Shown here in pieces: positions 3-46,673 of a DNA stretch of 64,000 bases. How positions within the stretch are numbered: position 1 is the first letter of the stretch; each line of letters begins with the position of its first letter. Where the stretch lies: the NCBI RefSeq assembly GCF_029227855.1, contig NZ_CP074357.1. One strand, written 5' to 3'. The notes beneath the pieces are model-generated. The model saw only the letters and a program-made list of their open reading frames with translations, had not been told where the DNA came from and searched no databases. This DNA comes from Escherichia coli (GTDB lineage: Bacteria > Pseudomonadota > Gammaproteobacteria > Enterobacterales > Enterobacteriaceae). The translations under genes and the position numbers were made by a program.

Positions 3-2396
<2,394 letters not shown>

Positions 2397-2409
2397 AGGA
2401 GTTCGTTTG

Positions 2410-2422
2410 AAAAGTTACTTTT
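2410..2422. repeat. Copy of dispersed 13-bp palindrome AAAAGTTACTTTT
   Basis: Exact palindrome read directly in sequence. Confidence 0.6.
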
Positions 2423-2531
2423 TTGCACATTAAGCCGAGATGTAAGACCAGTAGTAAAAGAAGCACTAAGCATAGCACTGATAAATAACTTATTTTTCAG
2501 CATGTTATAACCAGTGCATACCTGGTAGCTT

Positions 2532-3407
2532 TCAACCTTGTTTGGCGAGGGCCAGCTTAGGGCTTCTTTTGAAGATCTGAAATTGTATGTCGCGACCTTT
2601 CTTAACTTCTTGATAATCGAGATATCCGATAGATTCAAGTTCCCGCATTGCTTTACGAATTATCTGGTTTTGCGTACGAATAGGGGTTGTAAGAAGCAAC
2701 CTTTCCCTCAACCGTTTCATATTAACGAACAACGTACCAGCTGGCATTGCTTCAAAATAAATATAGAGAGATTGCGCAGCTTCTTTTTTAGCCAAAATGT
2801 ATAGAACCTGAAGGCTTAACAATGTCTTATGGTCGTAACGATACAGTTCCCACATAGAAGGATCCCCAACCAACTCAACAGTATCGCTTTTTGGATCAAT
2901 CATAGCCTTCTGCACCAGATGCGTTACTGTGAACCGACCACTCCGAGAGTCTGAGAAGGCAAGCACTACCGATGCAAGGTTCATTAATGACTCTTTAAAG
3001 CGCGCACGAGTTCGTTTGTTGATGTTTGTTGAACTGATACCACACATCTTCGCAAACTCGTTAAAAGTCAGGGTAATCTTCTCGGAAGTAAAACCATATT
3101 TACTGAAAGCCATGATGATCCCGAGCCAGCACTTAAAGTCGGTAGACATAGATAGTTTGACACCAGTTATCTTGATGTCGTCATAACCCTCCGATCTTGC
3201 AATTTCCATACACGAAAGCTCATCAGAGGCATCAACTTCAAAGTTTCGGTCGCGGTTTTCTTTTGTGCCGACAGGGGTAAATACACTCAATCTCAACAGG
3301 GCCACGGGCTGAACCGACTTGGACGAGTTAGGCGTCAGTTGATAAGTCTTACCTGATTCATTACTGGTTACGTCAAAAGGATGGATTAACTCGTTGTTTT
3401 TAATCAT
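2532..3407 (-). CDS. repA: Iteron-binding replication initiator RepA (P1/RepFIB type)
   Basis: 291 aa; conserved blocks shared with recalled P1 RepA / F RepFIB RepA (TVQPVAL.RL.VF, DFK.W.GII, AQ.LY.YFE); iterons on both sides. Confidence 0.85.
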   Translation of the reverse strand: MIKNNELIHPFDVTSNESGKTYQLTPNSSKSVQPVALLRLSVFTPVGTKENRDRNFEVDASDELSCMEIARSEGYDDIKITGVKLSMSTDFKCWLGIIMAFSKYGFTSEKITLTFNEFAKMCGISSTNINKRTRARFKESLMNLASVVLAFSDSRSGRFTVTHLVQKAMIDPKSDTVELVGDPSMWELYRYDHKTLLSLQVLYILAKKEAAQSLYIYFEAMPAGTLFVNMKRLRERLLLTTPIRTQNQIIRKAMRELESIGYLDYQEVKKGRDIQFQIFKRSPKLALAKQG

Positions 3408-3464
3408 TAACTTAACTCGTCGGTGATAAGATTTTCATTTGGCAAACTGTTTATAACATATTCT

Positions 3465-3563
3465 TGCAAATGCTTTTTACGCATTAACCTAAATGCCATA
3501 AGCATTCCAGTAAATGCCTTCCTTATTCATTCAAATGCTTTTCGCATGCATCCGAATGCCGGA
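3465..3563. repeat. Iterons upstream of repA (opposite orientation), likely origin/promoter iterons
   Basis: Repeated AAATGCYTT / CATTCAAATGCTTTTC units, reverse complement of the 2141-2396 iteron family. Confidence 0.65.
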
Positions 3564-3606
3564 TCCTTTCATAAAGTCACTATAATCAATGAGTTAAAGA
3601 TGCCGT

Positions 3607-3654
3607 GATCTTTACTTGAACTCTATTGATCTTTAGTGATCTAAAGAATTGATC
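3607..3654. promoter_or_regulatory. Cluster of four TGATCT (GATC) repeats beside the origin iterons; P1 oriR-like Dam-methylation element
   Basis: GATC at 3607, 3628, 3638 and 3651 within 48 bp, each in a TGATCT context. Confidence 0.55.
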
Positions 3655-3883
3655 TATCCTGTTGAAAACAATGATAAGTCCATATAAAACAAGGAATAGC
3701 GCTCCTTTAACAATATCTACAGATCGCAAACGGAAATGAACGAGGGTCTACTATCATTGTTTTATTCAAGACAGTTTTTATTTTAATTTTATTAAGCAAA
3801 TTTTTTGAGTTTACCTTTTAGATGTATCAGCCCTATTTGGCAAATTTGAGGTTCATGTATCATGTAGTAAACAGGAGGAAGAT

Positions 3884-4939
3884 ATGAACAACAGCAAACA
3901 TACAGTCATTGAAGTGGATACTAATCTAGTTGAAATTGAAAAGGGATTTAATCCCCGAGAGGCGGTAATCGGAGATTTGTGTTACGAACAAGAACCTGTC
4001 AAGTCGATGATTGTGTCAATCAAACAAGCCTTTAAGGAAGGAAGGCAGGTTGATATGATCAAGGTCGTAAAAAGAAAAGGTAAATATTTAGTTCGTCAAG
4101 GTCATACTCGTTTTCATGGCTTAAAATTAGCAATTTCTGAAGGTGCTAATATTCCAAAATTATCTGTTATCCTAATCGATTATAAAAACGAAATTGAAGA
4201 ATACCTTGAGAACCTCGATGGTAACAGAAGCAATGGGCTAAATCCGGTTGGGCAAGCTCATGCATTAGCTCATGCTGTTAGTCTCGGGTATTCGGTTGAA
4301 GAACTAGCAATGCGATATCAACGATCAACTACCGCAATTCGTAATATGCTAAAAATCCTTGATATGCCATTAGAGCTTCAACATTTGATTAGCCTAAATC
4401 TAATCAAAAAAACGCTCGCCATTGAAATAATGTTAAAATATTCCAACGATCACAAAATGGTTTTAAAACATATAGAAGGTTTCTTACCTGGCGTTAAGAA
4501 TATTGAGACTACAACGAGCAAAATTGTAGGCATACCTGAACACAATGCAGCTGGAGCAGGACCAGACACCTTAAATAAAGGCGGACCAGAAAAGAAAAAT
4601 TCGGCAGTCACTCGTAAGACTTTGGGTATTAAGCGCCTCTCGCATAAGAAAACAGAACGGCTAAAATCTGAATTTCTTGAGCTTGTGGAAAGTACACATA
4701 CGGAATCTATAACGAATACTCAAACAGAACTAAAATTTGGTAGAGATAGTGCACACTTGTTCAAAAATGTTAATAGTAATAATGTAATATTTTCCAATGA
4801 TGGTGTTCAAATAATCTTGAATGATGAAAAGCTAAATATTTTATTGTCTTTACTTAACGACGAAAATACAGCAATCATTGTTTCTAAACCAAAATTAGAA
4901 GAGCTTCTGGAAATTCGAGATCTCCTTAAGGAATATTAA
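3884..4939 (+). CDS. ParB/KorB-like DNA-binding protein (ParB N-terminal domain plus HTH), paralog 1
   Basis: 351 aa; GFNPRE and VRQGHTRFHGLKLA (ParB-box-like) then HTH SVEELAMRYQRSTTAIRNMLKILDMPLELQ; RBS AGGAGG. Confidence 0.75.
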   Translation: MNNSKHTVIEVDTNLVEIEKGFNPREAVIGDLCYEQEPVKSMIVSIKQAFKEGRQVDMIKVVKRKGKYLVRQGHTRFHGLKLAISEGANIPKLSVILIDYKNEIEEYLENLDGNRSNGLNPVGQAHALAHAVSLGYSVEELAMRYQRSTTAIRNMLKILDMPLELQHLISLNLIKKTLAIEIMLKYSNDHKMVLKHIEGFLPGVKNIETTTSKIVGIPEHNAAGAGPDTLNKGGPEKKNSAVTRKTLGIKRLSHKKTERLKSEFLELVESTHTESITNTQTELKFGRDSAHLFKNVNSNNVIFSNDGVQIILNDEKLNILLSLLNDENTAIIVSKPKLEELLEIRDLLKEY

Positions 4940-4956
4940 AAACGAGGATTAGTTGA

Positions 4957-5157
4957 GTGATTAAACCTATAAAGCTGACTCTTATCGATAATTATAGTGA
5001 TTTGCTTCTAACTCATGAAGTCCTTAAACGCAACATGGAAGAGTTAGAACACGGTAAACGTTTTGATCAATTTCCTGAAGGGCATGACCACTATGAAAAA
5101 ACTGTGAAAGAAGCTGTAGCAATCGTAGAGGCACGTTTGGAGGTGTTTCGAAAATGA
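4957..5157 (+). CDS. Hypothetical small protein
   Basis: 66 aa, GTG start, immediately downstream of the parB-like gene. Confidence 0.45.
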   Translation: MIKPIKLTLIDNYSDLLLTHEVLKRNMEELEHGKRFDQFPEGHDHYEKTVKEAVAIVEARLEVFRK

Positions 5158-5870
5158 AATCTCTTTTCTTTACTCTTGATGGTCATATGGTACCAGCCTC
5201 AGTGAATGTATCACTTAACGGAGATGGAAATTATTATGCACCTATCGAAAGAGAATGTAACGAATGTGCGGGCACAGGCCACAAAGGGGCTGATTTATGT
5301 GAAAAGTGTCATGGGGTACAAACAGTTGGACCCATTATTGAAAAATTAGTGGCACTAGAGCCAATTACCTTTCTCGATAACATTCCGGAACTGCGTGTTA
5401 ACCCAACACTCGAAGCATGGAAATCCAGAAACCACGTCCTTATTGAGAAAGCAAAAAAGGCTAACACTAAGTTTTCTAATAGTATATTGGCGCAATTAGA
5501 CAATAACCGTTTCTTGACAGAACGCCAGCTGGATTGTTTCTTTACAACTTTTGATGTGATGTTGTCTGAAACTCCGGAAAATGAACAAGAAATTTTAAAA
5601 CATAGCTACAATATCGGCCAGGTCATAAGCATTGAACTAACATTTACTGAAGTCAGGGCCGCGTACGCAAAAAGTAAAGGGAGTTATTTTTTTACATTTA
5701 CTGGTAAAGTTAGAAATGACGGGATCGCTTTAACGGCCGATAAACAGGATCACATTTTATTGGGTGAACGTTATCATTTGACTGGAAAAGTCAGAAAATT
5801 CTATGAATTTGATTCGAAAAATTATGCTGCAATAACAGTTTTTAAGTTAAATAAACTCCAAGACAGTTAA
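5154..5870 (+). CDS. Hypothetical protein with DnaJ-like CxxCxGxG zinc-finger motif
   Basis: 238 aa; CNECAGTGHKG...CEKCHG; ATGA overlap with the upstream ORF. Confidence 0.55.
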   Translation: MKSLFFTLDGHMVPASVNVSLNGDGNYYAPIERECNECAGTGHKGADLCEKCHGVQTVGPIIEKLVALEPITFLDNIPELRVNPTLEAWKSRNHVLIEKAKKANTKFSNSILAQLDNNRFLTERQLDCFFTTFDVMLSETPENEQEILKHSYNIGQVISIELTFTEVRAAYAKSKGSYFFTFTGKVRNDGIALTADKQDHILLGERYHLTGKVRKFYEFDSKNYAAITVFKLNKLQDS

Positions 5871-6101
5871 ATGTTTTTGCTGCTTAAATATAGAGCCAAG
5901 ACTTTAACTGTCGTTAGGACTCACTCACGTAATATTGTTGCTTACGCAATGGGTTTTATCCCTCATAAAGATCTGCGAGTATAAATCTTTTACATTTAAA
6001 TTCTCCTCTATCAGAACCTTTTCTATTGTAAAAAAATGATAATCTTATTAATTATAATTTTAATTTTTTGTATACCAATACCATACAGTTAAGGCTAAAA
6101 G

Positions 6102-6959
6102 GTGATGATGGAGATGGACTTTAAAATGCACAATGATCTGGGTCTCGGTTTCATTTGTAAAAATGCAAGAACATCGTCAAAGCCAACGTTAAGAAAAGTT
6201 ACTTTTCCGGTAAGCGCATATGAAACGTCTAAGCTTTCTTTAACCGGTTTTCAATGCCCCACAGCCTGCCGTTTTCCTTTTTTTGTGCTATGCATGATAA
6301 TCCATAACCATCTTTCGTCTGCATGCCCTATCACCCAAAATGAATGTTCAAATCATATCTCGCAATTTTCTATCGACATTAAAGTACAAGATTGGCTTAG
6401 CCGTTCAAGAGTAGCGTTTATTGATTTCCATAATCTTAGAAATACAGATAAAGCCACTTTAATAACAGTGAACCATCTTGAAGCTTTACTTACTGTTATG
6501 TCGACTACTCTTGTCGCTTATGTTCCATATTCAAAAAAGAGACTAAACTTTAGCTTTCTAAACTCATTCACTTTGTCTAAAACTTCTCAAAGTTACACAT
6601 TAACTTTCCCGGTAGTTCTCAGTCCGCTTTTAGATGCTCTTGGCGACTTCATTCAGGAATGCATAACCGAAAAATTGTTAAAACGACGAAATTCGAATTT
6701 CATGGTTTACGAGTATCTTAAACGTTCAGGCCAGAGCTCTCATAAAGTGGAGGACATTAATAACGACTTACAGCTTAAAAGTCTAAATATAAGACTTATG
6801 AGCGTCCTTACTGGCCTTTCTCAGCAAGGACTCATTTCATTTATTTGCGAAGGAAAGAGGGGCGACCGGAGAATAGAAGAGCTTCAGTTTATACCTTATG
6901 TTCAACGAACTTACCCTGAGGTATTAACTTTTGAGGAATGGATTAGCCCAGTTGATTAG
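6102..6959 (+). CDS. Hypothetical protein; convergent partner of the Dam-like methyltransferase
   Basis: 285 aa ORF in an AT-rich region, RBS present; contains palindrome copy 6194-6206 so the true start may be internal (Met at 6294). Confidence 0.45.
   Translation: MMMEMDFKMHNDLGLGFICKNARTSSKPTLRKVTFPVSAYETSKLSLTGFQCPTACRFPFFVLCMIIHNHLSSACPITQNECSNHISQFSIDIKVQDWLSRSRVAFIDFHNLRNTDKATLITVNHLEALLTVMSTTLVAYVPYSKKRLNFSFLNSFTLSKTSQSYTLTFPVVLSPLLDALGDFIQECITEKLLKRRNSNFMVYEYLKRSGQSSHKVEDINNDLQLKSLNIRLMSVLTGLSQQGLISFICEGKRGDRRIEELQFIPYVQRTYPEVLTFEEWISPVD
6194..6206. repeat. Copy of dispersed 13-bp palindrome AAAAGTTACTTTT
   Basis: Exact copy, inside the annotated 5' part of ORF 6102-6959. Confidence 0.6.
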
Positions 6960-6967
6960 AATTTACT

Positions 6968-7801
6968 CTATTTCAGCACGGCCAGTATTTCTGTTTCCGT
7001 TTTCCGTGTATTCGGCTTACTTCCTACGGATCGGTAAGCGCTGAGTCTGTGTATGACGAATCCACGCTCTTCATAGAGGCCCAAAGTGAATGATGTCAGG
7101 CTATTTGATATCGCAACAGCAGCGCCTTTTCTGTGAGCGTCAACGAGCATATTTGCTAACAGCACGTGGTCGCTTTGGCTGAACGGTTTACCATCGTAAC
7201 TGACAAAACTAGTTTTGCTTGTTTTGTCATATGGCGGATCACAGTAAATCTGATCTCCTTCACCGGTTGCGGCCAGAGTCTCCTCAAAACCAGCGGTGAT
7301 CAGTTCAATACCTGAAAGACGAAATGAAAGGTAGTCTATTTTATTGAGGTCAAGCTTCAGTTCTGTATGTTTCCCCCACGGCACTGAATAGATTCTTTCT
7401 GAGTTATAGCGGCACATACCGTTATAGCCCAGGCGATTCAGGGAGTAAAACAAAGCCGCTCTTTGAAGCGATTGACCAGAAATACAGGTTTTGTTGAAAC
7501 GGTCCCTCATCTCATAGTAGTCCTTTTCGACAAAGGTTTTATCCGCCAAGTTTTGGACCTGATTTATAAAGTTAGTTTTCTGTCTTTGAATAGTCCTGTA
7601 TAGGTTGATCAAGTCTGGATTGCTATCTGCAAGCAATGCATTTTGTGCAAACATGTTCAGAAAAACGGCACCACCGCCTATAAAGGGTTCTACCCACCGG
7701 CAACTATGATCGTGTGGGTAGTGATGGCTGATGAAAGGCATCAGTTTCGTTTTTCCACCAGCCCATTTGATTATCGGCATGTGTCTGAGATGTCGAGTCA
7801 A
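6968..7801 (-). CDS. Dam-family N6-adenine DNA methyltransferase (alpha class)
   Basis: 277 aa; IIKWAGGK, EPFIGGGAVF (motif I), CDPPY (motif IV), NRLGYNGMCRYN; near-colinear with recalled E. coli Dam. Confidence 0.9.
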   Translation of the reverse strand: MTRHLRHMPIIKWAGGKTKLMPFISHHYPHDHSCRWVEPFIGGGAVFLNMFAQNALLADSNPDLINLYRTIQRQKTNFINQVQNLADKTFVEKDYYEMRDRFNKTCISGQSLQRAALFYSLNRLGYNGMCRYNSERIYSVPWGKHTELKLDLNKIDYLSFRLSGIELITAGFEETLAATGEGDQIYCDPPYDKTSKTSFVSYDGKPFSQSDHVLLANMLVDAHRKGAAVAISNSLTSFTLGLYEERGFVIHRLSAYRSVGSKPNTRKTETEILAVLK

Positions 7802-8056
7802 AGTGTCTATACCTGAGAGAGAAATTTAGGTGCTGGTATCGTACCTAACCACGGGCTTTAACTAATAACTTAGGGAGCAAAAAAAAGTTGTTTAAGACGC
7901 ACAGTTTTGACTTTCAGCATTTCGGATTTATAAGATTTTTCCTCACTTATACCTGAACTTTATGTTTTGGATTTATGTATTTGTTTATGAAGCGATTTTT
8001 ATGCCATCACAAGTAATGGGGAGCCACCTTTTTTTGTAAAAAATCAGAATAGGCTC

Positions 8057-8069
8057 AAAAAGTACCTTT
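8057..8069. repeat. Variant copy of dispersed palindrome (AAAAGTACCTTTT)
   Basis: One mismatch to consensus; 93 bp upstream of parB-like gene 8150. Confidence 0.45.
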
Positions 8070-8149
8070 TTTGCGAAAAATTATGAATTTTTTTTTCGGT
8101 AGTATCCCCGCTACGCAGAAAGTAAGCAGAAAAATGTAACGGAGCCCCT

Positions 8150-9313
8150 ATGAGTGTTTTACTGACAGAACCTACACAGCAAGCTAATGACAAGGTCTTT
8201 AAAACGGCCCATGTTGCCTTTTCAGTAGTTACTGGCACAGGCCGTTACGTCACTGGGCTTAAACAGTTCCGTGATGCAAACCCTGAACTTTGTACTGAAG
8301 TAAGTGACCAGAAAGCATGGGCTATCCACCCTTCAGTAATTCAGGTCACGCCAGGCTTCAACTCCCGCGAAATGGGAATGGGTGACGATTACTATAAGCT
8401 CCCTGAGGTTGAAGAACACATCTACAACATCAAGAATGCCTACATTCGAGGTGACTATGTAGACCCTATCCGAGTACGTGTCATTGATGGGGTACCTTTT
8501 GTTCGCCAGGGGCACTGCCGTTTAAAAGCCGCAATGATGGCATGTGATGAAGATCATGACATCACAATCCTTTGCGTTGAGATTAAAGAAGATGAAATTG
8601 GCTGTGAGCTCGCGACCATTGATGGTAACCGTGGTCTTGCGCTTTCTCCTGTTGCGCTTGGCGAGTCCTATCGTCGCCTACATTCTCTTGCTGGCTGGTC
8701 ACTCGAACGAATTGCTCAACGTGAAAATAAAAGCCCGACGACCATCAGTTCTCTTATCCGCCTGACAACCTGTTCTGTTGTTATCAAGAAATGGATTCAT
8801 GCTGACGCTATTTCGTATGTTAACGTGCTTTCACTGATCGATGAGCTCGGCGAAACAGAAGCAATTTCACGTATCAAGAAGATGATCGCAGAACTTGAGC
8901 AGGCCGATGCGAATGGCATCACGGTGAAAAAAACCCAACATGGTCAGGTACGAGTCAGACCTTCAGACTTCAAGCCAGCACGGATTCCGCCGGTTATTGC
9001 CACAAAAGCCGTAGAAGGCGTCAAACTCATCACCACCAGCTTATTACAGAAACTGGGGGATATTGAATTGCCGGAGCTGACAGATTCAAGTGCTGACGAA
9101 GAAATCAACATTACGTTGAACCGCAGTACTCTGGAGATGTTGAGAAATCTTTCAAAAGAGATCACAGAATCAGAGAACAAGCAGCTTCGCCGTGCGGAGA
9201 ATCGTCAGGCAAAACTTAATGGTGAGAAGCCAAAATACCCACGTAAAAAAAATGCTAAGAAGGCAGGGGAAGAGACCGATCAGGATACTGACCCACAGCC
9301 GGACGCAGAATAA
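8150..9313 (+). CDS. ParB/KorB-like DNA-binding protein, paralog 2
   Basis: 387 aa; GFNSRE and VRQGHCRLKAA, HTH LERIAQRENKSPTTISSLIRL; acidic C-terminus. Confidence 0.75.
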   Translation: MSVLLTEPTQQANDKVFKTAHVAFSVVTGTGRYVTGLKQFRDANPELCTEVSDQKAWAIHPSVIQVTPGFNSREMGMGDDYYKLPEVEEHIYNIKNAYIRGDYVDPIRVRVIDGVPFVRQGHCRLKAAMMACDEDHDITILCVEIKEDEIGCELATIDGNRGLALSPVALGESYRRLHSLAGWSLERIAQRENKSPTTISSLIRLTTCSVVIKKWIHADAISYVNVLSLIDELGETEAISRIKKMIAELEQADANGITVKKTQHGQVRVRPSDFKPARIPPVIATKAVEGVKLITTSLLQKLGDIELPELTDSSADEEINITLNRSTLEMLRNLSKEITESENKQLRRAENRQAKLNGEKPKYPRKKNAKKAGEETDQDTDPQPDAE

Positions 9314-9560: not shown

Positions 9561-11252
9561 ATGTCATCTCTTGATTCTGAAGCTAAACCCGATAATGCAG
9601 GTCACAGCGTACTGGCTTTAACAACCTCTCATAGCCTGGTGGTTAGCTCTCCTGAAACATTTCTTCCAGATATGCGCAAAGAGCTCGGCATTATCGCGGA
9701 TCTTGTTGAGTCCTATAATGATGAACTCTGCTTGTTGAAACTCATGGCTGTCCAGTTCAAAACCCACAATCACCAGAAACTTTATTCTTATCTCTCAGGC
9801 TACAACCACAGCATCTCAGAAGCGGATGCTTTGTTCGCAGAAAACGCTCTGAGATCAGAATACTGGAAACGCGTTATGGCACTCACTGATGTTTTGCCTA
9901 TCATGTCGGATGCCAAACGTAACGAATGGGATAAGCAGTTTACGGCCGACCGTTATATTATGCCGCCTCAGGTGATCCCTGATTTCACAGCTGACGCTGT
10001 AGTGGGCACAGTCGTTGCTTTGCTTAATGACCGCAATCAATTTATTAAAGAAAGGGTTTACGACGTCTTCCAGTCTCTGAGCCGCAGTCACAAGACAAAC
10101 AAAGCTTTTGGGTTCTCCACCCGCATGATCACTACCGGAGTTTGCGAGCCGTCTAAATACCCCTGGCAGAAATTAAGGGTGGATTTTAAAGAGTCTGGCA
10201 TTTCACCGCTGAGCGAGCTCCGCGTTATATGCGCATTCTTCCGTGGCGAACAGGTGAAGGCGATCCATAACACCAAATCATTGGTTGAGGCGTTGGTCGA
10301 ACATGAGGGGTTCAGAAAATGGATCTGCATCGATGGCAACAGTATTCGTTTCAGGGTTTACAAAAATGGATCAATGCATATTGACGTCCACCCTGATATC
10401 GCCGAGCGGCTTAACAATATTTTATCAGCTATCGTACCGCTGGCATTACCTGCCGACCGTATGGCTCATAGCAAGAAATCTTTGGAGGCATTCCCTGTAC
10501 TTAAGCAGTGCATCGACTTTGATACCCGGATGCAGCTTTCTGAACTGATGTTTAAAAATGACGGGGACAATAAATGGAGTTGCTGGACATCTTTAGGGTC
10601 TCTCGCCGAACGCAAATCTTCGAGTGTTGCCGCTGACACCCTTCGGTTCTTAGGGGCAACAGTAACAAAATACGATGTGACATTTTCCTATGATCCGTGT
10701 GAGGTTATTCGTTACATCGGCCAGATAGGGGAGATGCCTGATATTGTATCGCATCAGTTTTACCCTTCATCTTGCCGAATCAGCGAATATGTATCTTCCC
10801 TGCTTGGTGCAGGGGAAGGGGATACCCTCCTGGAGCCTAATATTGGCCATGCGGATTTGCTTAAATCATTCCCTGCCGGTGTGATCGTTACTGGCATCGA
10901 GCTTGATACTTTGAATTGCCTTATCTCCCGGGCTAAGGGATACGATACGACAGAAGCTGACTTCCTCACATGGTCTAAGTCTAATCAACAGAAGAAGTTT
11001 GATTATGTCGTGATGAACCCACCTTTTGCCGATAACCGGGCCAGGCTGCATCTCCAGGCAGCTGCATCTCATCTCGCAGCCGGGGGATCTCTAGCAGCCG
11101 TTCTTCCATTATCTCTTCAGGGGCTCGATAACCTTTTGGGGGAAGAATTCCGGACGGAATGGATGGACGTTTTTGAGAACGAGTTTGAAAACACGACCGT
11201 TTCGGTTCGCATCCTGTACGCCGAACGTATTCAACAAGAGGAAGTCCTATGA
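9561..11252 (+). CDS. N6-adenine-type DNA methyltransferase with large N-terminal domain
   Basis: 563 aa; C-terminal catalytic region with EPNIGHADLL (motif I-like) and VVMNPPF (motif IV); paralogous to the MTase domain of 28362-29186. Confidence 0.75.
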   Translation: MSSLDSEAKPDNAGHSVLALTTSHSLVVSSPETFLPDMRKELGIIADLVESYNDELCLLKLMAVQFKTHNHQKLYSYLSGYNHSISEADALFAENALRSEYWKRVMALTDVLPIMSDAKRNEWDKQFTADRYIMPPQVIPDFTADAVVGTVVALLNDRNQFIKERVYDVFQSLSRSHKTNKAFGFSTRMITTGVCEPSKYPWQKLRVDFKESGISPLSELRVICAFFRGEQVKAIHNTKSLVEALVEHEGFRKWICIDGNSIRFRVYKNGSMHIDVHPDIAERLNNILSAIVPLALPADRMAHSKKSLEAFPVLKQCIDFDTRMQLSELMFKNDGDNKWSCWTSLGSLAERKSSSVAADTLRFLGATVTKYDVTFSYDPCEVIRYIGQIGEMPDIVSHQFYPSSCRISEYVSSLLGAGEGDTLLEPNIGHADLLKSFPAGVIVTGIELDTLNCLISRAKGYDTTEADFLTWSKSNQQKKFDYVVMNPPFADNRARLHLQAAASHLAAGGSLAAVLPLSLQGLDNLLGEEFRTEWMDVFENEFENTTVSVRILYAERIQQEEVL

Positions 11253-11425
11253 GCAACCAACCCACCAGCCTGCCAGAAGAAGATATTGAGTTTGTTATGG
11301 ATACCTTTCAGAGGAGCATGGGTAAATCCAAGCCTGTCAGGGATACTCAACTAGAGGGTGAGAAACCGCAAAGTAAAGAGTCCGCAAACTCAACTGAAAA
11401 CCCCGGTTATGAAGAATTCTATTAA
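11249..11425 (+). CDS. Small acidic hypothetical protein, translationally coupled to the upstream methyltransferase
   Basis: 58 codons, ATGA overlap with the MTase stop; below the ORF-track length cutoff. Confidence 0.35.
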   Translation: MSNQPTSLPEEDIEFVMDTFQRSMGKSKPVRDTQLEGEKPQSKESANSTENPGYEEFY

Positions 11426-24487: not shown

Positions 24488-26908
24488 TTACTTCAACTCG
24501 TCGATCTGAATCATGAATTCTGAGGTGCCAACTTTCCCATTTTCGGAAGGATAAACGGGTAACAGAAGATTATCCCCCTGGCCCATATCTATTTGCACCT
24601 CAACTGACTCGCCTGGAGCCGCCTGTGCCCCATTAAATTTAATACCGAAGGCTGCATCCTTCCGCACAGTCAGCGTTGCGTTCTGGACCCCTTTAGCAAT
24701 TTCTCCATTTGTCTTACGCAGAACGTTAGTGGACAGGTACGCAAGTGGTACGCCATCTGTCGTTTTGAGAGGTGAACTGACCGACAATGTGCGTAGATTA
24801 TGTAACTGCACAAGGTTATTCGGTAGATAACTGAACTTCTGAGTATAGGTTTTGGTATTCGACTGACTATCGGCAACTGTTACGCTAATTGAATAATTTT
24901 CAGATGGTTCGAAATTTGGGAACAGCCTCGGATACTCAGGCATGTATGTATCTTTGCCTGCCGGTGACCACGTAAGCTCAACGTTATCAGCTGTGGGGCC
25001 ACCTACGAGCTGAAGACGGGTTATCCTCGGGGTTGTCAGATTATCTGCCAGAGCGATCCTGAGGTTCTCCAGGCCGTACACTACCGTATCGTCTTTTACC
25101 GGCTTTCCGTCGAATGTTATGGCCACTGTCGGAGGAGTGTTATCCAGAGCAATTTCTCCGAAAGTTTTATTGGTCTGGTTCTGGAAGAAGTCCCTGATGT
25201 TGACCTCAACGTTGTATTTTCCTTCAGACTGACGGGATAAATCATAAGCAATCGTGTAGTTACCTGAGATACGAGATTTGATTACGCCTGTTGGTGACAT
25301 CCGGGTACCGGTGTTCTTATCGGAAAGATAAAATTCCCTCAATGAGACCGAGTCGAACCAGTTACCATCGCCTTCAAGTGACGCCAGTACATCCAGCTGC
25401 TTGTTAGTCTCGTCATATGATATCGAGTTTATTACCGGCAGTTGTTTATTGTTCCAGCGTGTCATAATCCATTGCTCAGACCGCAAAATGGGATTGCTGA
25501 TGCTGCGAACGAAGTAAAGGATTCTATTGTAGCCCTGGGTACCCAAGGCCATATCAAACGTCTCAGGCGCTTCACACGAGGTTTTTCCTGCCGGAATGGT
25601 GCAGGTCGCCTTACCGCCGATCTCCTGTGCAAAGGGCCGGGCTTCAACGTTAAAACGAAGTCGGGAAATTTTAATTGGCAGTCGTGATGAAGCCACACTC
25701 TCAAAATCCTTCCACTTAACCCAGTTCCCCTTATCATCGAGGAAATCTACCCAGGTACCCGCAAATGCAGGCGTTTGGTTTGCAGATGGGTTTAGAACGA
25801 GGCTGTATGACGGATAATACCCTCCCCACTGGCCAAAGTTCGCCATACGAGCCATATCCCCATTAATTGAGCCATAGGGAAGAGTCATTTCAACATAAGC
25901 ATAAGTGCTGTCTACAGCTATCTCTTTGGGGGCGGAATATTGATTGATGAACTGAAGCCCACCTTCTGAATAAGCACGGTAGTTAGATTTTGGGATCCGG
26001 TAGACTAATCGAATAGGGTTTTCGTTAACGACCATACCGGCTTTGTAAGCCGGATAATTAGAAACCCCGGGTACGACGCTGGAAGACGTATTTGGATCAT
26101 GAACGGCCCACAGTGTCATCTCACCCAGCGTGTTGTCGTAGCGAAATTTTTGAGTTGGCAGCGTTCGGCTATTACCTGCGTTATCGAAGATAACAACTTT
26201 TGCAGTAAAGTCTTCATCCAGGTTGCTGTCTGGTATTCCGGTTCCCTTAACTGAATTCTTAGAGTAAGTGTGGTACATCTTTTGGCCGGATACGTCATAC
26301 TGCATCTGTGTAGTGCTGTAGAGGCTACCGTCCTGCCTGTAAATATATATTAGGCCCTTATCAATACCATTTGCATCACTTACGCCCGAAGAGGTGAAGT
26401 CATACTGCCCCGTTGCCTCTAATCCAAGCTTCCACACGTCACCAGCGGTAGAGCCAGAACCAGTATTAGCGGTAAGAGCATTTGCCGCTGGAGGGGTGAC
26501 ATCAATTAGCCAGTTATAGTTATAGGTCGCTACAGGCTTCTGATTGAGATCTAACACGTTTATCTGAACGACAAATTTGCCTTCACCCAAAGCAGGCAAA
26601 GTTACTTTTTTGCCGTAGAACTCACTACCGTCAGCAGCTGTTAGTCGGTCTGATACACCCGTCCGTGTAGTCGTAGTATTAAGAATGACAGTTCCAGTGT
26701 CTTTCGTGACTTTGACATTAACGAAACGATCAAGACCTGAAATAAGTGTCAAAGTTACCGGTGATGCCGGATTAAGCATAAGACGAGAAGACGGGGCGTG
26801 GATCTCAATACCGTTCGTGTCCTTAAAGGCCGATTCATATATCTGAGCTGGGGCCTGAACAGACATACCGAGTCCGGCTACAGCAGTAATAAAAGCGAGA
26901 TGTTTCAT
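24488..26908 (-). CDS. Large secreted Ig-like-repeat protein, paralog B
   Basis: 806 aa; signal peptide; LIDVTPP and ALDNTPPTVAI motifs; conserved C-terminal block. Confidence 0.7.
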   Translation of the reverse strand: MKHLAFITAVAGLGMSVQAPAQIYESAFKDTNGIEIHAPSSRLMLNPASPVTLTLISGLDRFVNVKVTKDTGTVILNTTTTRTGVSDRLTAADGSEFYGKKVTLPALGEGKFVVQINVLDLNQKPVATYNYNWLIDVTPPAANALTANTGSGSTAGDVWKLGLEATGQYDFTSSGVSDANGIDKGLIYIYRQDGSLYSTTQMQYDVSGQKMYHTYSKNSVKGTGIPDSNLDEDFTAKVVIFDNAGNSRTLPTQKFRYDNTLGEMTLWAVHDPNTSSSVVPGVSNYPAYKAGMVVNENPIRLVYRIPKSNYRAYSEGGLQFINQYSAPKEIAVDSTYAYVEMTLPYGSINGDMARMANFGQWGGYYPSYSLVLNPSANQTPAFAGTWVDFLDDKGNWVKWKDFESVASSRLPIKISRLRFNVEARPFAQEIGGKATCTIPAGKTSCEAPETFDMALGTQGYNRILYFVRSISNPILRSEQWIMTRWNNKQLPVINSISYDETNKQLDVLASLEGDGNWFDSVSLREFYLSDKNTGTRMSPTGVIKSRISGNYTIAYDLSRQSEGKYNVEVNIRDFFQNQTNKTFGEIALDNTPPTVAITFDGKPVKDDTVVYGLENLRIALADNLTTPRITRLQLVGGPTADNVELTWSPAGKDTYMPEYPRLFPNFEPSENYSISVTVADSQSNTKTYTQKFSYLPNNLVQLHNLRTLSVSSPLKTTDGVPLAYLSTNVLRKTNGEIAKGVQNATLTVRKDAAFGIKFNGAQAAPGESVEVQIDMGQGDNLLLPVYPSENGKVGTSEFMIQIDELK

Positions 26909-28361: not shown

Positions 28362-29186
28362 TTAGCGGCGAAGATCAATTTCAAGGCGGGCTGTTTTGAC
28401 CTTTGTTCCGGACTCCCTAAATGTATCATCCGGAAGAGGCGAAATTTGTCCGCCAAGTTGTTTGACTCGCTCCCTGAGCGCTTTTGTCAGTGTGTCTTCC
28501 CGGAACAATACCCCAGCTGACAGAATGGCCTGTAAGCGACCTCGCTTAGCGAGCATTGCGATGGCATGCATGACATGTTTAACGTCAGAGCGTTTAAGGA
28601 ATGGTGGATTCATAACGATAACATCAAAAGTTTCATCGGGCTGGTACCCAAGAAAGTCGGTATGCACCAGCTCGGCCCCTGTGCTAAGGACACTATCGTT
28701 CTTCACTGCAAGGAATCGCTCATCGTTCAATTCGATCCCGGTAATCAATGCATCCGGAGCCGCCAGTTTTAAGGCTTTCAGAATGCGGCCATCACCAAAC
28801 TCAGGCTCCAGAACACGTTCCCCGGCAGCTGGTTCAGCGCGTAGAACCATATCTGTGACTAAATTCTCAGGGGTAGGGAAGAAATTGAACAAATCACGTG
28901 GGATGTCGACCGAACCTGTCAGAATGATTTGCTCGATACGCTCAGCTGCATCCGCCGTAAAAATATGTGCCTGCTCTTTTCGGTTCCATTTGCCACCGGC
29001 AGCTTCCAGCACTTTGTTTGTCTTAACATAAATGCTGCGGTCGAGCTGGTCGGCCAGGAAAAGAAAGTTCCCTTCAGCACGGCAGCGAGATAAGACGTTC
29101 AGAACTTCAGTTGAGATTTGCATTAAAACTCCATTAAGAGGATTTACCCGCCTGGCGGCAGCGGGTTGGTTACTTAAACAGGACAA
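28362..29186 (-). CDS. N6-adenine-type DNA methyltransferase (NPPF motif)
   Basis: 274 aa; LEPEFGDGRILK (motif I-like), DVIVMNPPF (motif IV); paralog of the C-terminal domain of 9561-11252. Confidence 0.78.
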   Translation of the reverse strand: MSCLSNQPAAARRVNPLNGVLMQISTEVLNVLSRCRAEGNFLFLADQLDRSIYVKTNKVLEAAGGKWNRKEQAHIFTADAAERIEQIILTGSVDIPRDLFNFFPTPENLVTDMVLRAEPAAGERVLEPEFGDGRILKALKLAAPDALITGIELNDERFLAVKNDSVLSTGAELVHTDFLGYQPDETFDVIVMNPPFLKRSDVKHVMHAIAMLAKRGRLQAILSAGVLFREDTLTKALRERVKQLGGQISPLPDDTFRESGTKVKTARLEIDLRR

Positions 29187-31805: not shown

Positions 31806-32057
31806 ATGAGCGTAATCCCAGATTACACCAGGGTTCAGCATGTCCAGATTATTCGCGAGCGAGATGGGCAGAAGGAAGTTGTTCGAGTCTATGATGAAGA
31901 TGGCGACGTAGTTCTGTGTTTACCTGCCTACATTCAGGATGAGGAAATAAATCTTATTCTGCGCCGGTTGAATGACGTATATTCAGTCGGATATCGTGTA
32001 GGTGATGCAGCCCGCCGCCGCGCCATCAAAAAAGCGCTGGGGGATGATGAGGAGTAA
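31806..32057 (+). CDS. Hypothetical protein
   Basis: 83 aa. Confidence 0.45.
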   Translation: MSVIPDYTRVQHVQIIRERDGQKEVVRVYDEDGDVVLCLPAYIQDEEINLILRRLNDVYSVGYRVGDAARRRAIKKALGDDEE

Positions 32058-44288: not shown

Positions 44289-46673
44289 ATGTTTATTGAA
44301 AAAAGTGACTCATTCCTTGAATTACCCTCAGAAGTTATTTTTCCTGAGGCGGCTAATGCTGCCATTTTGAAACATGATAAATGGGCTGATGTTTGGGAGA
44401 CCCTGACAACCGATGCCGATCTGAACTATACCGATGAAAAGGAGACTGTGAGTCTTTCTTCTCTGGTCACGTCAGCCACATCTGCTATTTATCAGGCTAT
44501 TACGGACGGATGGACGATGTGCGTGGGATACAGTGGCGGTAAAGACTCCCATTCTCTTCTTCACCTATTTCTGATGGCATTGATCAGGGCAGTACGTAAC
44601 GGCACAAATATCAGCGAACATCATTTCATTCAGATGTCCGATACGCTGATCGAAAACCCTGAGATGCACTATCAGGCTTCACAGGTTCTCAACCAGCTTA
44701 GAATGTTCATTGCTGAACACCAGCTACCGGTCACAGTCCTTGTCGCCCAACCGTCTCTTACGCAGAGCTGGGTAGGCCGCATTCTGACTGGACGTGGACT
44801 TCCGACCTGGACTAATTCTTCAACCCGTCAGTGCTCAACCGACTACAAAATCGCCCCCCTGCGCAAGGCCAAAGCTCGTTATCTAAAAAACGCCCCGGCA
44901 TCCGTACGAAGCAGGGTATGCCTGATGCTGGGCTCCAGGGATGATGAAAGTGCCCGAAGGGCCGGAAATATCCTCAAAATGGGAGGGCAGGCGAGGAAAG
45001 TAACCCTGACTGAGCACGGTGGTGAACTCTATCCAGTAAAGGAGTGGCGCACTCAGGACATCTGGTCTTTTCTAATGGCCTGTGGTTCCGAATCCCGCTT
45101 CCCTTTACCAAGCTTTATGCCGGATAACTTCAGCCTGGCAACGCTTTATAAAGACGCCACCGGAGAGTGTATCTGGTCGCCGGAGAAACCCACGCGAACC
45201 TCAGCTTGTGGGGCTAGATATGGGTGCTCGCTTTGCACAGCCGTAGGGGTTGACCATTCAATGGAAACGCTCCTTCGCACTGACCCTGAGAAATATGGTT
45301 ATCAGGCAGGCCTAAGTCGTCTTCAGCGATTTCTTTCTAAGATCCAGTACGACTGGAGCCTGCGGGATTATATCGGTCGTAAAGTGTTCGAAGGCGGGTA
45401 TGTGCGTCTTCAACCCAATATCTTTTCTTCGTCCCTGACTGAACGTCTTTTTCATGTCTGTTGCAGCCTTGATTATGTTGAAGCCAGACGTGCGGCAAAG
45501 CATCGCAGAAAGCTACTTTCCGGCGAGGTGGACGATACGGCTTATAACCGTCGTATGGCTGAGCCACAATTTCGGCTTGTACATGAAGCAAACGTGATCC
45601 ACGTTGATTTCCTCTGGTCGTTGCACTGTTTCAACCCTCGCCCGTTTCGGGCAATTGAGATCTATCGCAGAGTCTGGGAAGAGGCCGATCTGGACCTTCT
45701 TGAGGATGAGCCTGACATGCTGCCTGTGGCCCGTACACCAATGCCAGCTCCACTCTGGATGAAACTGCCCGGAGGCCGGTTCGGTACAGCTTATGATGGA
45801 CTGACTGATACGTTGCCGCTGATGACCTATTTTGACGGGCAGGCTGACCCCAGGGCTTCACGTAGCCTAAAGACCGGAGAGAGCAGTTCTGTCGTCGTGG
45901 CATTCGAGGAAGAGGATGAGCTGACTGTTGAAGAAGATACGGCGTCCTGGATTATCTGGCATGAATACGACGGGTTACGCCAGAGCATCGCTGACGGTGA
46001 GTTTACTCCAACGACTGCTGCTCAGTATCTTCTTCGTTATGGCGCGGTCCGAATTTCAAAAGGGAAGGGCGCTGTCTATCATCGTCTCGCACAACGGGGA
46101 CAAACCTTTTCCCGCCTGGGGATAGGCGAAAGAGTGTCGCTTCCAGAGCTGGTTGCCAGTCGGCGTTTTAAAATACTCAGCGATACTGCATACCGTCAGG
46201 TTGTAGCCCGGAAATTGCGTGGACAGATAAAAAAGTTCAGATTCTGGGCATGCGTAGCTGCCTGTGTACAGTTGCACGTACACAACAAGACGGCACTCGG
46301 AGAAAGAATCTTAACGTTACTCGAAGGTGAGAGGGAACAGCAACAAGGTGCGATCCAGGCGAAGCTGAAGGCGGGAATGATGGATGCAGTTCTAACTCTG
46401 TGTAACCAGCGACTCCGGGTGAAAGAAAATACTAACCAGCCAGAGGAGTTCCGCTATTACCGTGCCGTAAGAGCTCGTTTCATGCGCCATTTATCTGAAT
46501 GCCTTAAGCCAGAAAATGGCGGCGTTATCCGTGACGTTATCTGGGAACTGAGGGTGCTGAGCAGTGCTCACGGTACGACCAAAACAGGTTTTTACTATGT
46601 CGATAGCAATCGCCCGACAGCGAAAGGACTGTTAAACCGCCTTCTGATGAGGATGGTCAGGCAGGTCGTATAA
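44289..46673 (+). CDS. PP-loop ATP-pyrophosphatase superfamily protein (PAPS-reductase / DndC-like) with long C-terminal extension
   Basis: 794 aa; PP-loop CVGYSGGKDSH; Cys cluster ACGARYGCSLC; C-terminal roughly 450 aa unassigned. Confidence 0.7.
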   Translation: MFIEKSDSFLELPSEVIFPEAANAAILKHDKWADVWETLTTDADLNYTDEKETVSLSSLVTSATSAIYQAITDGWTMCVGYSGGKDSHSLLHLFLMALIRAVRNGTNISEHHFIQMSDTLIENPEMHYQASQVLNQLRMFIAEHQLPVTVLVAQPSLTQSWVGRILTGRGLPTWTNSSTRQCSTDYKIAPLRKAKARYLKNAPASVRSRVCLMLGSRDDESARRAGNILKMGGQARKVTLTEHGGELYPVKEWRTQDIWSFLMACGSESRFPLPSFMPDNFSLATLYKDATGECIWSPEKPTRTSACGARYGCSLCTAVGVDHSMETLLRTDPEKYGYQAGLSRLQRFLSKIQYDWSLRDYIGRKVFEGGYVRLQPNIFSSSLTERLFHVCCSLDYVEARRAAKHRRKLLSGEVDDTAYNRRMAEPQFRLVHEANVIHVDFLWSLHCFNPRPFRAIEIYRRVWEEADLDLLEDEPDMLPVARTPMPAPLWMKLPGGRFGTAYDGLTDTLPLMTYFDGQADPRASRSLKTGESSSVVVAFEEEDELTVEEDTASWIIWHEYDGLRQSIADGEFTPTTAAQYLLRYGAVRISKGKGAVYHRLAQRGQTFSRLGIGERVSLPELVASRRFKILSDTAYRQVVARKLRGQIKKFRFWACVAACVQLHVHNKTALGERILTLLEGEREQQQGAIQAKLKAGMMDAVLTLCNQRLRVKENTNQPEEFRYYRAVRARFMRHLSECLKPENGGVIRDVIWELRVLSSAHGTTKTGFYYVDSNRPTAKGLLNRLLMRMVRQVV

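Follow-up and report, generated by a model that had tools for sequence, protein, structure and literature searches.

The IncHI replicon and the thermoregulation of IncHI plasmids by H-NS and Hha are already established, and IncHI2 plasmids are major carriers of mcr, extended-spectrum β-lactamase (ESBL), and multidrug resistance genes. The closest described counterparts of the locus analyzed here are the RepHI1A/RepHI2A iteron replicons of R27 and R478, in which a Rep3-family initiator is flanked by iterons, adjoins a GATC-containing, AT-rich region, and sits next to the pilus-gene operon at its trhA end. We analyzed the corresponding AT-rich stretch of an Escherichia coli IncHI2 plasmid, contained in a 64-kb window (the whole stretch of DNA under study, numbered from its first letter) that corresponds to positions 32001–96000 of record NZ_MZ152088.1, as checked by reassembly. 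A database comparison of window positions 2000–9000 with this record gave a 100% match over the full length. The record is a conjugative E. coli plasmid of 267,429 bp, typed IncHI2A/IncN, MOBH, and MPF_F. Its replicon shares initiator family, flanking iterons, adjoining AT-rich region, and genomic site with those of R27 and R478, and nothing essential differs; in this copy, an IS100 element lies in the distal iteron-like cluster. Next to the replicon stands a block of four co-oriented plus-strand genes, encoding a ParB-like protein (ParB-like1), a 66-aa protein, a zinc-finger protein, and a 284-aa protein (h284). From rep onward, the genes have the same order and orientation as R0036–R0044 of the IncHI1 plasmid R27 and are direct orthologs of them, as identified by gene order and annotation; in R27, R0036 is annotated as repHIA, R0039 as a zinc-finger protein, R0041 as a DNA adenine methylase, R0042 as a partition protein, and R0043 as a DNA restriction methylase. 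Our analysis indicates that the AT-rich stretch is very probably native, ancient IncHI2 backbone, consisting of the RepHI2A origin and a conserved, weakly expressed four-gene block of DNA-binding-type proteins.

The features of the stretch are the following, with GC3 denoting the GC content at third codon positions.

2152–2394: distal iteron-like cluster downstream of rep, with ATTCAnnnAAATGCnTTT in both orientations; a further copy lies at 39–57
2532–3407, minus strand: RepHI2A replication initiator (GC 0.427), assigned by Rep3_N and Rep3_C domains, annotation, and IncHI2A replicon typing
3459–3562: five tandem iterons of ~21 bp with the core AAATGC, upstream of rep
3605–3660: putative AT-rich DNA-unwinding element, with four GATC sites (3607, 3628, 3638, and 3651) in GATCTnT... 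repeats
3884–4939, plus strand: ParB-like1 (R0037 ortholog, 351 aa; GC 0.356, GC3 0.287), with a ParB/Srx-type N-terminal domain and a ParB helix-turn-helix (HTH)
4957–5157, plus strand: 66-aa protein (R0038 ortholog; GC 0.378, GC3 0.299), separated from ParB-like1 by 17 bp and sharing 4 bp with the gene that follows
5154–5870, plus strand: zinc-finger protein (R0039 ortholog, 238 aa; GC 0.374, GC3 0.318)
5871–6104: spacer of 234 bp with 29.5% GC, lower than in any other piece of the tract
6105–6959, plus strand: h284 (R0040 ortholog, 284 aa; GC 0.377, GC3 0.340), with a C-terminal winged helix

The initial annotation of this DNA had proposed, from its AT-richness, that 3.6–8.1 kb is separately acquired cargo. 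Distribution, synteny, co-divergence, borders, and codon usage all contradict this. The block occurs at at least 95% identity in 1,114 plasmid records, and RepHI2A occurs in 1,115. It forms part of a conserved array that runs from the pilus genes trhB to trhA through Rep, ParB-like1, the small protein, the zinc-finger protein, and h284 to Dam, ParB-like2, a DUF4942 protein, a second small protein, and an immunoglobulin (Ig)-like protein. The complete array is kept in two IncHI1A-type plasmids at ~67% nucleotide identity, and is also found in a Photorhabdus contig and two metagenomic relatives (h284 homologs 47% and 30% identical); in all, four relatives more distant than the IncHI1A-type plasmids show the synteny, and the 66-aa protein is syntenic in every relative. 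In one of the two metagenomic relatives (a Logan SRR14012073 contig), the array is otherwise intact, with the Rep3 gene between trhA and the block replaced by an unrelated open reading frame (ORF) of 543 aa at 3962–5593 that gave no Pfam match and may represent a replicon swap or a novel initiator. Across the 14 genes of the locus, with co-divergence judged from pairwise identities only, the IncHI1 plasmid and pCFR-eb27 are always close and IncHI2 is the outlier, and the block is not incongruent with its neighbors. At the borders of the block, repeat searches and junction comparisons revealed neither an integrase nor terminal repeats or a target duplication belonging to it. Relative to R27 and IncHI1, the block proteins are 50–63% identical in amino-acid sequence, and the dip is weaker in IncHI1 (GC 0.39–0.45, versus 0.36–0.38 here).

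Codon usage also speaks against an acquired origin. The relative synonymous codon usage (RSCU) of the block correlates with that of other gene groups of the plasmid as follows.

parA, parB, and parM: r = 0.84
Other AT-rich core genes: r = 0.80
tra genes: r = 0.67
Dam, ParB-like2, and DUF4942 genes: r = 0.31
Resistance genes: r = −0.29
Insertion sequence (IS) genes: r = −0.30

The block thus matches the core partition genes and is anti-correlated with true cargo. GC3 agrees, being 0.285–0.299 in parA, parB, and parM and 0.287–0.340 in the block. The IS26-bounded multidrug resistance region has a GC content of 51.1%, versus 45.1% for the rest of the plasmid, and the AT-rich tracts lie at 37–38%. 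Because cargo is GC-rich and backbone is AT-rich on this plasmid, inferring cargo from composition runs the wrong way. The change in composition at the right end of the block is old. In all six lineages compared, the genes for ParB-like1, the small protein, and the zinc-finger protein have a GC3 of 0.25–0.42, versus 0.44–0.60 for Dam, ParB-like2, DUF4942, and Ig-like genes; the h284 ortholog is intermediate, reaching 0.46–0.49 in three of the six. Its presence in six lineages implies that this GC3 step predates the IncHI1/IncHI2 split. Selection may be what maintains the step; alternatively, it may stem from weak constraint on genes of low expression or be a relic of an ancient mosaic.

The dip itself is real, although its edges lie elsewhere than first proposed. 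The GC content of 3600–8100 is 37.28%, versus 46.9% in the remainder of the window, and in a sliding-window analysis the interval deviates from the window average, falling in the lowest 0.8% of 4.5-kb windows within the 64 kb (mean 46.2%, standard deviation (sd) 3.2%). The lowest 4.5-kb window begins at 2358, not at 3600, and 2751–7250 is the sole place in the window where the 1-kb GC content stays below 40%. We place the AT-rich tract between the end of IS100 (2017) and ~6960, with an additional short intergenic dip at 7781–8149 (36% GC). The replicon had been read as GC-richer flank; its rep-proximal origin spacer (3408–3883) is the most AT-rich piece on the left side with only 32.8% GC, so the replicon belongs to the dip. 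Conversely, the Dam gene, which had been counted inside the island, has the composition of the window average (GC 0.445, GC3 0.465). The labels "ParB-like" and "Dam-like" given to the two proteins are both right by domain matches. The four block genes lie ~2–2.6 sd below the genes of the window (41 non-IS genes; mean GC 0.461, mean GC3 0.458, sd 0.065), and GC at codon position 2 is low as well (0.24–0.37).

Measured against the whole 267-kb plasmid, the dip at 3600–8100 is milder (z = −1.7, 2.3rd percentile). Eighteen tracts with a 1-kb GC content below 39% make up 20% of the plasmid; six of them are 3.7–7.5 kb long, including parM/parAB and the mobI–trhF region, and the lowest 4.5-kb window of the plasmid sits elsewhere, at record position 246795. 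By annotation, the pilus genes trhB-htdO-trhK-trhE-trhL-trhA lie directly left of the window, and four of these adjoining genes (htdO, trhK, trhE, and trhL) have a GC3 of 0.32–0.40. The genes trhA and trhL are assigned to the "AC" operon, with parAB and parM close by; the trhA–trhC operon with its embedded par modules is what we take to be Tra2 in R27 nomenclature. The plasmid's own parA-parB and parM are found at 11.4–17.4 kb of the record. The contrast at the locus is visible because its neighbors are GC-richer: IS100 has inserted on the left, and the genes for Dam, ParB-like2, and DUF4942, followed by IS66, lie on the right. The left-hand element, identified by annotation and junction comparison, comprises the following features.

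63–2016, plus strand: IS100 (IS21 family), 1,954 bp, 51% GC
149–1171: istA of IS100
1168–1950: istB of IS100

IS100 is bordered by a 5-bp target duplication, ATTGG, at 58–62 and 2017–2021, as seen by comparison with the uninterrupted IncHI2 plasmid L011, and is an independent simple insertion. Most other IncHI2 plasmids match only from window position 2017 onward, and the element is lacking in most relatives. In L011, the GC content stays at or below 0.43 without a break for ~7 kb, from trhE through h284, and the sharp left edge of the tract is therefore due to the insertion of IS100. The element landed within the distal iteron-like cluster, splitting the copy at 39–57 from the copies at 2152–2394.

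The left part of the tract is occupied by the RepHI2A replicon. The initiator matches Pfam Rep3_N with 30.3 bits (cut-off 22.4) and Rep3_C with 21.9 bits (cut-off 21.1), and has 86% amino-acid identity to the IncHI1A-type Rep. A repeat search showed that the iteron-like ATTCAnnnAAATGCnTTT repeats flank rep on both sides. In an alignment of IncHI2 with two IncHI1A-type plasmids, the five iterons and the four GATC sites are essentially invariant, and the rest of the spacer is variable; the same arrangement of iterons and GATC sites is present in the Photorhabdus relative. The GATCTnT... repeats at 3605–3660 resemble the 13-mers of oriC, and with four sites in 60 bp, no other GATC cluster in the window is as dense. 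A DnaA-box-like sequence, GTGGATAA, follows the GATC block; it is clear in IncHI1 and degenerate in the IncHI2 copy. Iteron origins have Rep-bound repeats beside an AT-rich unwinding element, and by analogy with such origins in general the spacer would function as a normal iteron origin with an AT-rich unwinding element. A second replicon of the plasmid also has clusters of at least three GATC sites per 60 bp, at 19000–19800, upstream of RepHI2 (19934–21022). With GATC clusters upstream of rep, both origins look Dam-sensitive, and the plasmid encodes its own Dam.

The right part of the tract is the four-gene block, whose proteins are only partly recognizable; PHROGs identified ParB-like1 alone among them (phrog_1033, a phage/plasmid family, E = 7e-25). 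ParB-like1 matches Pfam HTH_ParB with 26.8 bits, above the cut-off of 22.6. The Pfam model of the ParB N-terminal domain gave no match, and TIGR00180 (ParB/RepB/Spo0J) scored 33.6 bits, below its cut-off of 58.45. Weak sequence matches were found in the PDB to Noc, Spo0J, and KorB (KorB structure 8qa8). The motifs GFNPRE, VRQGHxR, and ENLDGN are kept in six orthologs, with VRQGHxR occupying the place of the ParB GERR box. Relatives of the N-terminal half, at 28–34% identity, occur in lytic siphophages (9NA, for example) and in plasmids, both of the IncC type and large ones from Klebsiella. There is no ParA or ParM partner beside ParB-like1, whose neighbors are the 66-aa protein and the zinc-finger protein, and a search for parS nearby gave only weak inverted repeats (3654–3676 with 3752–3774, and 4166–4189) and nothing convincing. 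The data do not support assigning ParB-like1 to the partition ParB family. The protein instead appears to be one of the ParA-less ParB-like proteins of mobile elements, a class of ParB-like CTPase-fold proteins that includes KorB of RK2, HerB/YfjB of F, BisD of ICEclc, and VirB of pINV; HerB/YfjB is a recently described, characterized member (PMC13370423). Like these, plasmid-borne ParB-like1 has a ParB/Srx-type N-terminal domain, motifs resembling Boxes I, II, and III, a ParB HTH, and no adjacent ParA. It differs from them in having GHxR rather than GERR in Box II and an unrelated C-terminal half, and its sequence similarity to the characterized proteins is marginal (E ~0.003–0.01). Judged by its motifs, ParB-like1 may hold an intact ParB-type nucleotide pocket.

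The zinc-finger protein carries a DnaJ-type CxxCxGxG...CxxCxG motif at residues 35–54, and its match to Pfam DnaJ_CXXCXGXG (E = 8e-4) is below cut-off. It is restricted to IncHI-type elements, a search of 5.8 billion proteins giving just ten homologs with at least 50% identity, and its AlphaFold2 model is poor (predicted local distance difference test score 60, predicted template modeling score 0.35). The best sigma-70-like match in 1.9–11.6 kb (6051–6078, minus strand, TTGGTA-16-TATAAT, 10/12) lies in the 29.5%-GC spacer that follows this gene and runs antisense into it; AT-rich DNA gives rise to spurious promoters of this sort.

The last protein of the block, h284, is likewise restricted to IncHI-type elements, with 13 homologs among 5.8 billion proteins and eight representative clusters among 1.84 billion. 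Two methods gave RepA-WH1, RctB, MSBI1.176 Rep, and RepE as the best structural matches of its predicted model, with at most 205 columns aligned. The model may resemble the WH1–WH2 folds of Rep3-family initiators such as RepE of F, RepA of pPS10, and π of R6K, and the gene adjoins an iteron origin; a Rep-like fold is possible and a new lead. A link between h284 and Rep at the sequence level was sought and rejected: Pfam found no Rep3 domain in 12 family members, a profile search of PDB sequences returned no Rep, and hhalign of h284 against RepHI2A gave a probability of 0.14. A search for iterons or operators of its own yielded only weak two-copy repeats. A P-loop was also discarded, the match to GvpD_P-loop (E = 0.017) being below cut-off, confined to one of the 12 family members, and unsupported by the model. 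Two roles proposed for the block as a whole were dropped. PADLOC matched none of the four genes to a defense or anti-defense function, recognizing only methyltransferase models for Dam and DUF4942. Identity with the conjugative leading region was rejected because the relaxase, mobI, and probable oriT (record 104–109 kb) lie ~70 kb away and the block is not beside oriT.

The composition of the tract is compatible with silencing by H-NS. At 3884–6967, GC is 0.362, runs of six A/T nucleotides occur at 61.9 per kb versus 30.6 in the background, and TpA steps at 79.8 per kb versus 55.0. Near-matches to the published high-affinity H-NS motif are 2.6-fold enriched (2.9 versus 1.1 per kb). Genes for an H-NS-family protein and for an Hha protein are present on the plasmid, and in another IncHI2 plasmid the plasmid h-ns gene ranks with the most strongly expressed genes (PMC13183382). 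The H-NS-family gene lies outside the window (record 207753–208109) and starts within, or abuts, the end of an IS26 element (207058–207762); its 5' end or promoter may be altered in NZ_MZ152088.1. Expression data are available for R27. In the wild type, R0037–R0041 give 48–239 arbitrary units (a.u.) at 25 and 37 °C, where more than 600 a.u. is counted as highly expressed; R0042, the ortholog of ParB-like2, gives 6132 and 2278 a.u. at 25 and 37 °C and is among the highest plasmid genes (PMC7366339). In an htdA mutant at 25 °C, R0037–R0041 rise 4.2-, 7.0-, 5.0-, 18.6-, and 7.8-fold; at 37 °C they do not increase (PMC7366339 supplement). The 18.6-fold response of the h284 ortholog, versus 4–7-fold for the three genes upstream, makes a separate h284 promoter probable, and the 234-bp spacer at 5871–6104 is where it probably lies. 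H-NS is known to repress R27 conjugation at non-permissive temperature (PMC7366339). The tract resembles H-NS/Hha-silenced AT-rich enterobacterial DNA, including the thermoregulated transfer genes of IncHI plasmids, in its low GC content relative to the host, its A/T tracts, and its TpA content, and also in the low basal expression of its orthologs and the presence of plasmid-borne hns and hha. It differs from classical xenogeneic silencing, which concerns newly acquired DNA, in that the AT-rich DNA is here the element's own conserved core; H-NS binding is predicted, and silencing of the tract, which the initial annotation had also raised as a possibility, is plausible.

Taken together, these observations suggest the following working model. 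In the left part, Rep would bind ~21-bp repeats on either side of its own gene and open the adjacent GATC-packed, AT-rich element. The right part encodes four proteins of DNA-binding type, whose genes are conserved beside the origin, are expressed at a low level, and carry the codon signature of the core partition and regulatory genes. The tract would be a preferred target of H-NS and Hha, both chromosomal and plasmid-encoded, and the four genes would stay near-silent until the conjugation regulatory circuit of IncHI is derepressed, as the R27 orthologs behave. The plasmid Dam may keep the GATC cluster of the origin methylated. Our best guess is that, in establishment or transfer, the four proteins regulate or organize DNA near the origin.

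Several observations weigh against this reading. No other part of the locus evolves as fast as the block, which has 50–63% amino-acid identity between IncHI2 and IncHI1 versus 69–86% for rep, Dam, ParB-like2, and DUF4942, so its AT-richness could simply reflect weak selection and AT-biased mutation. As to silencing, the R27 expression values come from orthologs only 50–63% identical and HtdA is a different regulator from H-NS; moreover, 106 of 170 non-tra R27 genes were derepressed in the htdA mutant, a response not specific to the block (PMC7366339). Low expression of the R27 orthologs has possible causes other than silencing, and our literature search turned up neither H-NS chromatin immunoprecipitation data nor results from hns mutants that cover this region of IncHI2 or R27. 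A consensus scan found no good plus-strand promoter for either transcription unit of the block, but such promoter and terminator scans gave fewer matches than shuffled sequence and are uninformative in DNA this AT-rich. Given the low codon-usage correlation with the right-hand neighbors (r = 0.31), the backbone may also have an ancient mosaic origin. The most serious competing explanation, a minority possibility in our judgment, is passive drift: a native block, weakly expressed and weakly constrained, would have accumulated GC-to-AT changes through mutation bias, with no regulatory meaning. The rapid evolution of the block, the low GC even at codon position 2, the very low expression of the R27 orthologs, and the greater AT-richness of IncHI2 relative to IncHI1, as lineage-specific drift predicts, all fit this explanation. 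However, the strongly conserved and well-expressed parA, parB, and parM share the same GC3, so that low constraint is not needed to account for it; six lineages share the gene boundary at which the composition changes; and the ParB-like1 motifs are clearly under purifying selection.

An origin as an ancient mosaic appears unlikely. Here, a backbone older than the IncHI1/IncHI2 split would have been put together from at least two sources, one AT-rich (par, trh regulators, and the block) and one GC-richer (Dam, ParB-like2, DUF4942, and Ig-like genes), with ~6960 as the fossil junction. Such a history would explain the sharp, conserved GC3 step at the h284/Dam boundary in six lineages, the RSCU correlation of only 0.31 across it, and the difference in composition between ParB-like1 and ParB-like2, which are paralogs of 30% identity; the relative that swapped its Rep and kept the array implies that modules are exchangeable here. 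Yet divergence to 30% identity, as in h284, should have let amelioration erase a donor signature unless it was maintained, and no donor lineage was identified. We give slightly less credit still to a more ambitious proposal, in which the block is an uncharacterized, IncHI-specific control module, silenced by H-NS/Hha on deliberately AT-rich DNA, induced with the conjugation circuit, and acting on the RepHIA origin or on plasmid chromatin in transfer or establishment. In this scheme, h284 might for example be a Rep-derived competitor for iteron binding and ParB-like1 a sliding clamp of KorB/HerB type, and the compositional step would be kept by selection. Highly improbable, finally, is the horizontal acquisition of 3.6–8.1 kb as cargo that retained its donor's composition in a GC-richer plasmid. 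The block does have the lowest GC content of the 64-kb window, its codon usage is unlike that of the genes directly to its right (r = 0.31), and an IS element abuts the region. But it is present in essentially every RepHI2A plasmid, is syntenic in six diverged lineages, and co-diverges with its neighbors; its codon usage is that of core parABM and opposite to that of true cargo; the abutting IS100 is flanked by a target duplication of its own and is missing from most relatives; and Dam is not AT-rich. Native, ancient backbone around the RepHI2A origin thus stands as our preferred explanation.

The conserved array continues to the right of the block, with annotated IS elements beyond it, as listed here.

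6968–7780, minus strand: Dam-family N6-adenine DNA methyltransferase (R0041 ortholog), convergent with h284
7781–8149: divergent Dam/ParB-like2 intergenic region, 36% GC
8150–9313, plus strand: ParB-like2 (R0042 ortholog, annotated "partition protein"), 387 aa, with an ordinary GC of 0.469
9561–11252, plus strand: DUF4942/N6-methyltransferase-like protein (Pfam DUF4942, E = 3e-22; phrog_6263 DNA methyltransferase, E = 2e-112)
11249–11425, plus strand: 58-aa protein; together with the DUF4942 gene, it closes the conserved array on the right (GC 0.47)
Right of 11425: IS66 and IS5 elements

The Dam protein matches Pfam MethyltransfD12 with E = 1e-48 and TIGR00571 with 228 bits (cut-off 114.85), and its translation contains CDPPYD; its score of 169 is below the cut-off of 441 of the E. 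coli Dam equivalog. By its domain scores and DPPY motif, it is a bona fide Dam-family enzyme, with a predicted specificity for GATC. In the divergent intergenic region, upstream of ParB-like2, a 25-nt direct repeat, ACCTTTTTTTGTAAAAAATCAGAAT, occurs at 8026–8050 and 8064–8088, 38 bp apart, the second copy being 76% identical; it could be an operator in a divergent promoter region. ParB-like2 is the 30%-identical paralog of ParB-like1. The motifs GFNxRE and VRQGHCR are common to both paralogs, whereas ENLDGN is found only in the ParB-like1 lineage; ParB-like2 has A/T-T-I/L-D/N-GN at this place, with the "EN" lost. A second, shorter DUF4942-domain gene lies with a hypothetical gene outside the window (record 167190–169210), near a DNA cytosine methyltransferase gene (171060–172487).

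Further along, the window holds three large genes for proteins with Ig-like domains, at 16370–18826, 24488–26908 (minus strand), and 32461–34851; a class of Ig-like proteins is reported to be needed for the conjugation of IncHI plasmids (PMC6764697). From ~28000 to 64000 runs a long, mostly co-directional series of small hypothetical genes. It also includes DNA methyltransferase genes at 28362–29123 (minus strand) and 39855–41105, a PAPS-reductase-family gene at 44289–46673, and genes for an HNH endonuclease, DUF3085 and DUF957 proteins, a RelE toxin, and a Hok toxin. As a whole, it resembles an establishment or anti-restriction region.

Hundreds of database entries match the sequence of this locus exactly, and the AT-rich stretch is an ordinary feature that reveals nothing new about the plasmid family as such. 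It does hold a lesson of method: on IncHI2 plasmids, low GC content marks the conserved backbone of origin, partition, and regulatory genes, and high GC content marks imported IS and resistance cargo, so that calling an "island" from composition points the wrong way. Within this backbone, more than 1,000 sequenced resistance plasmids carry the same four functionally blank genes. The possible Rep-like fold of h284 and the ParB-type pocket that ParB-like1 may hold are new leads among them, and make these proteins targets for the study of plasmid maintenance.

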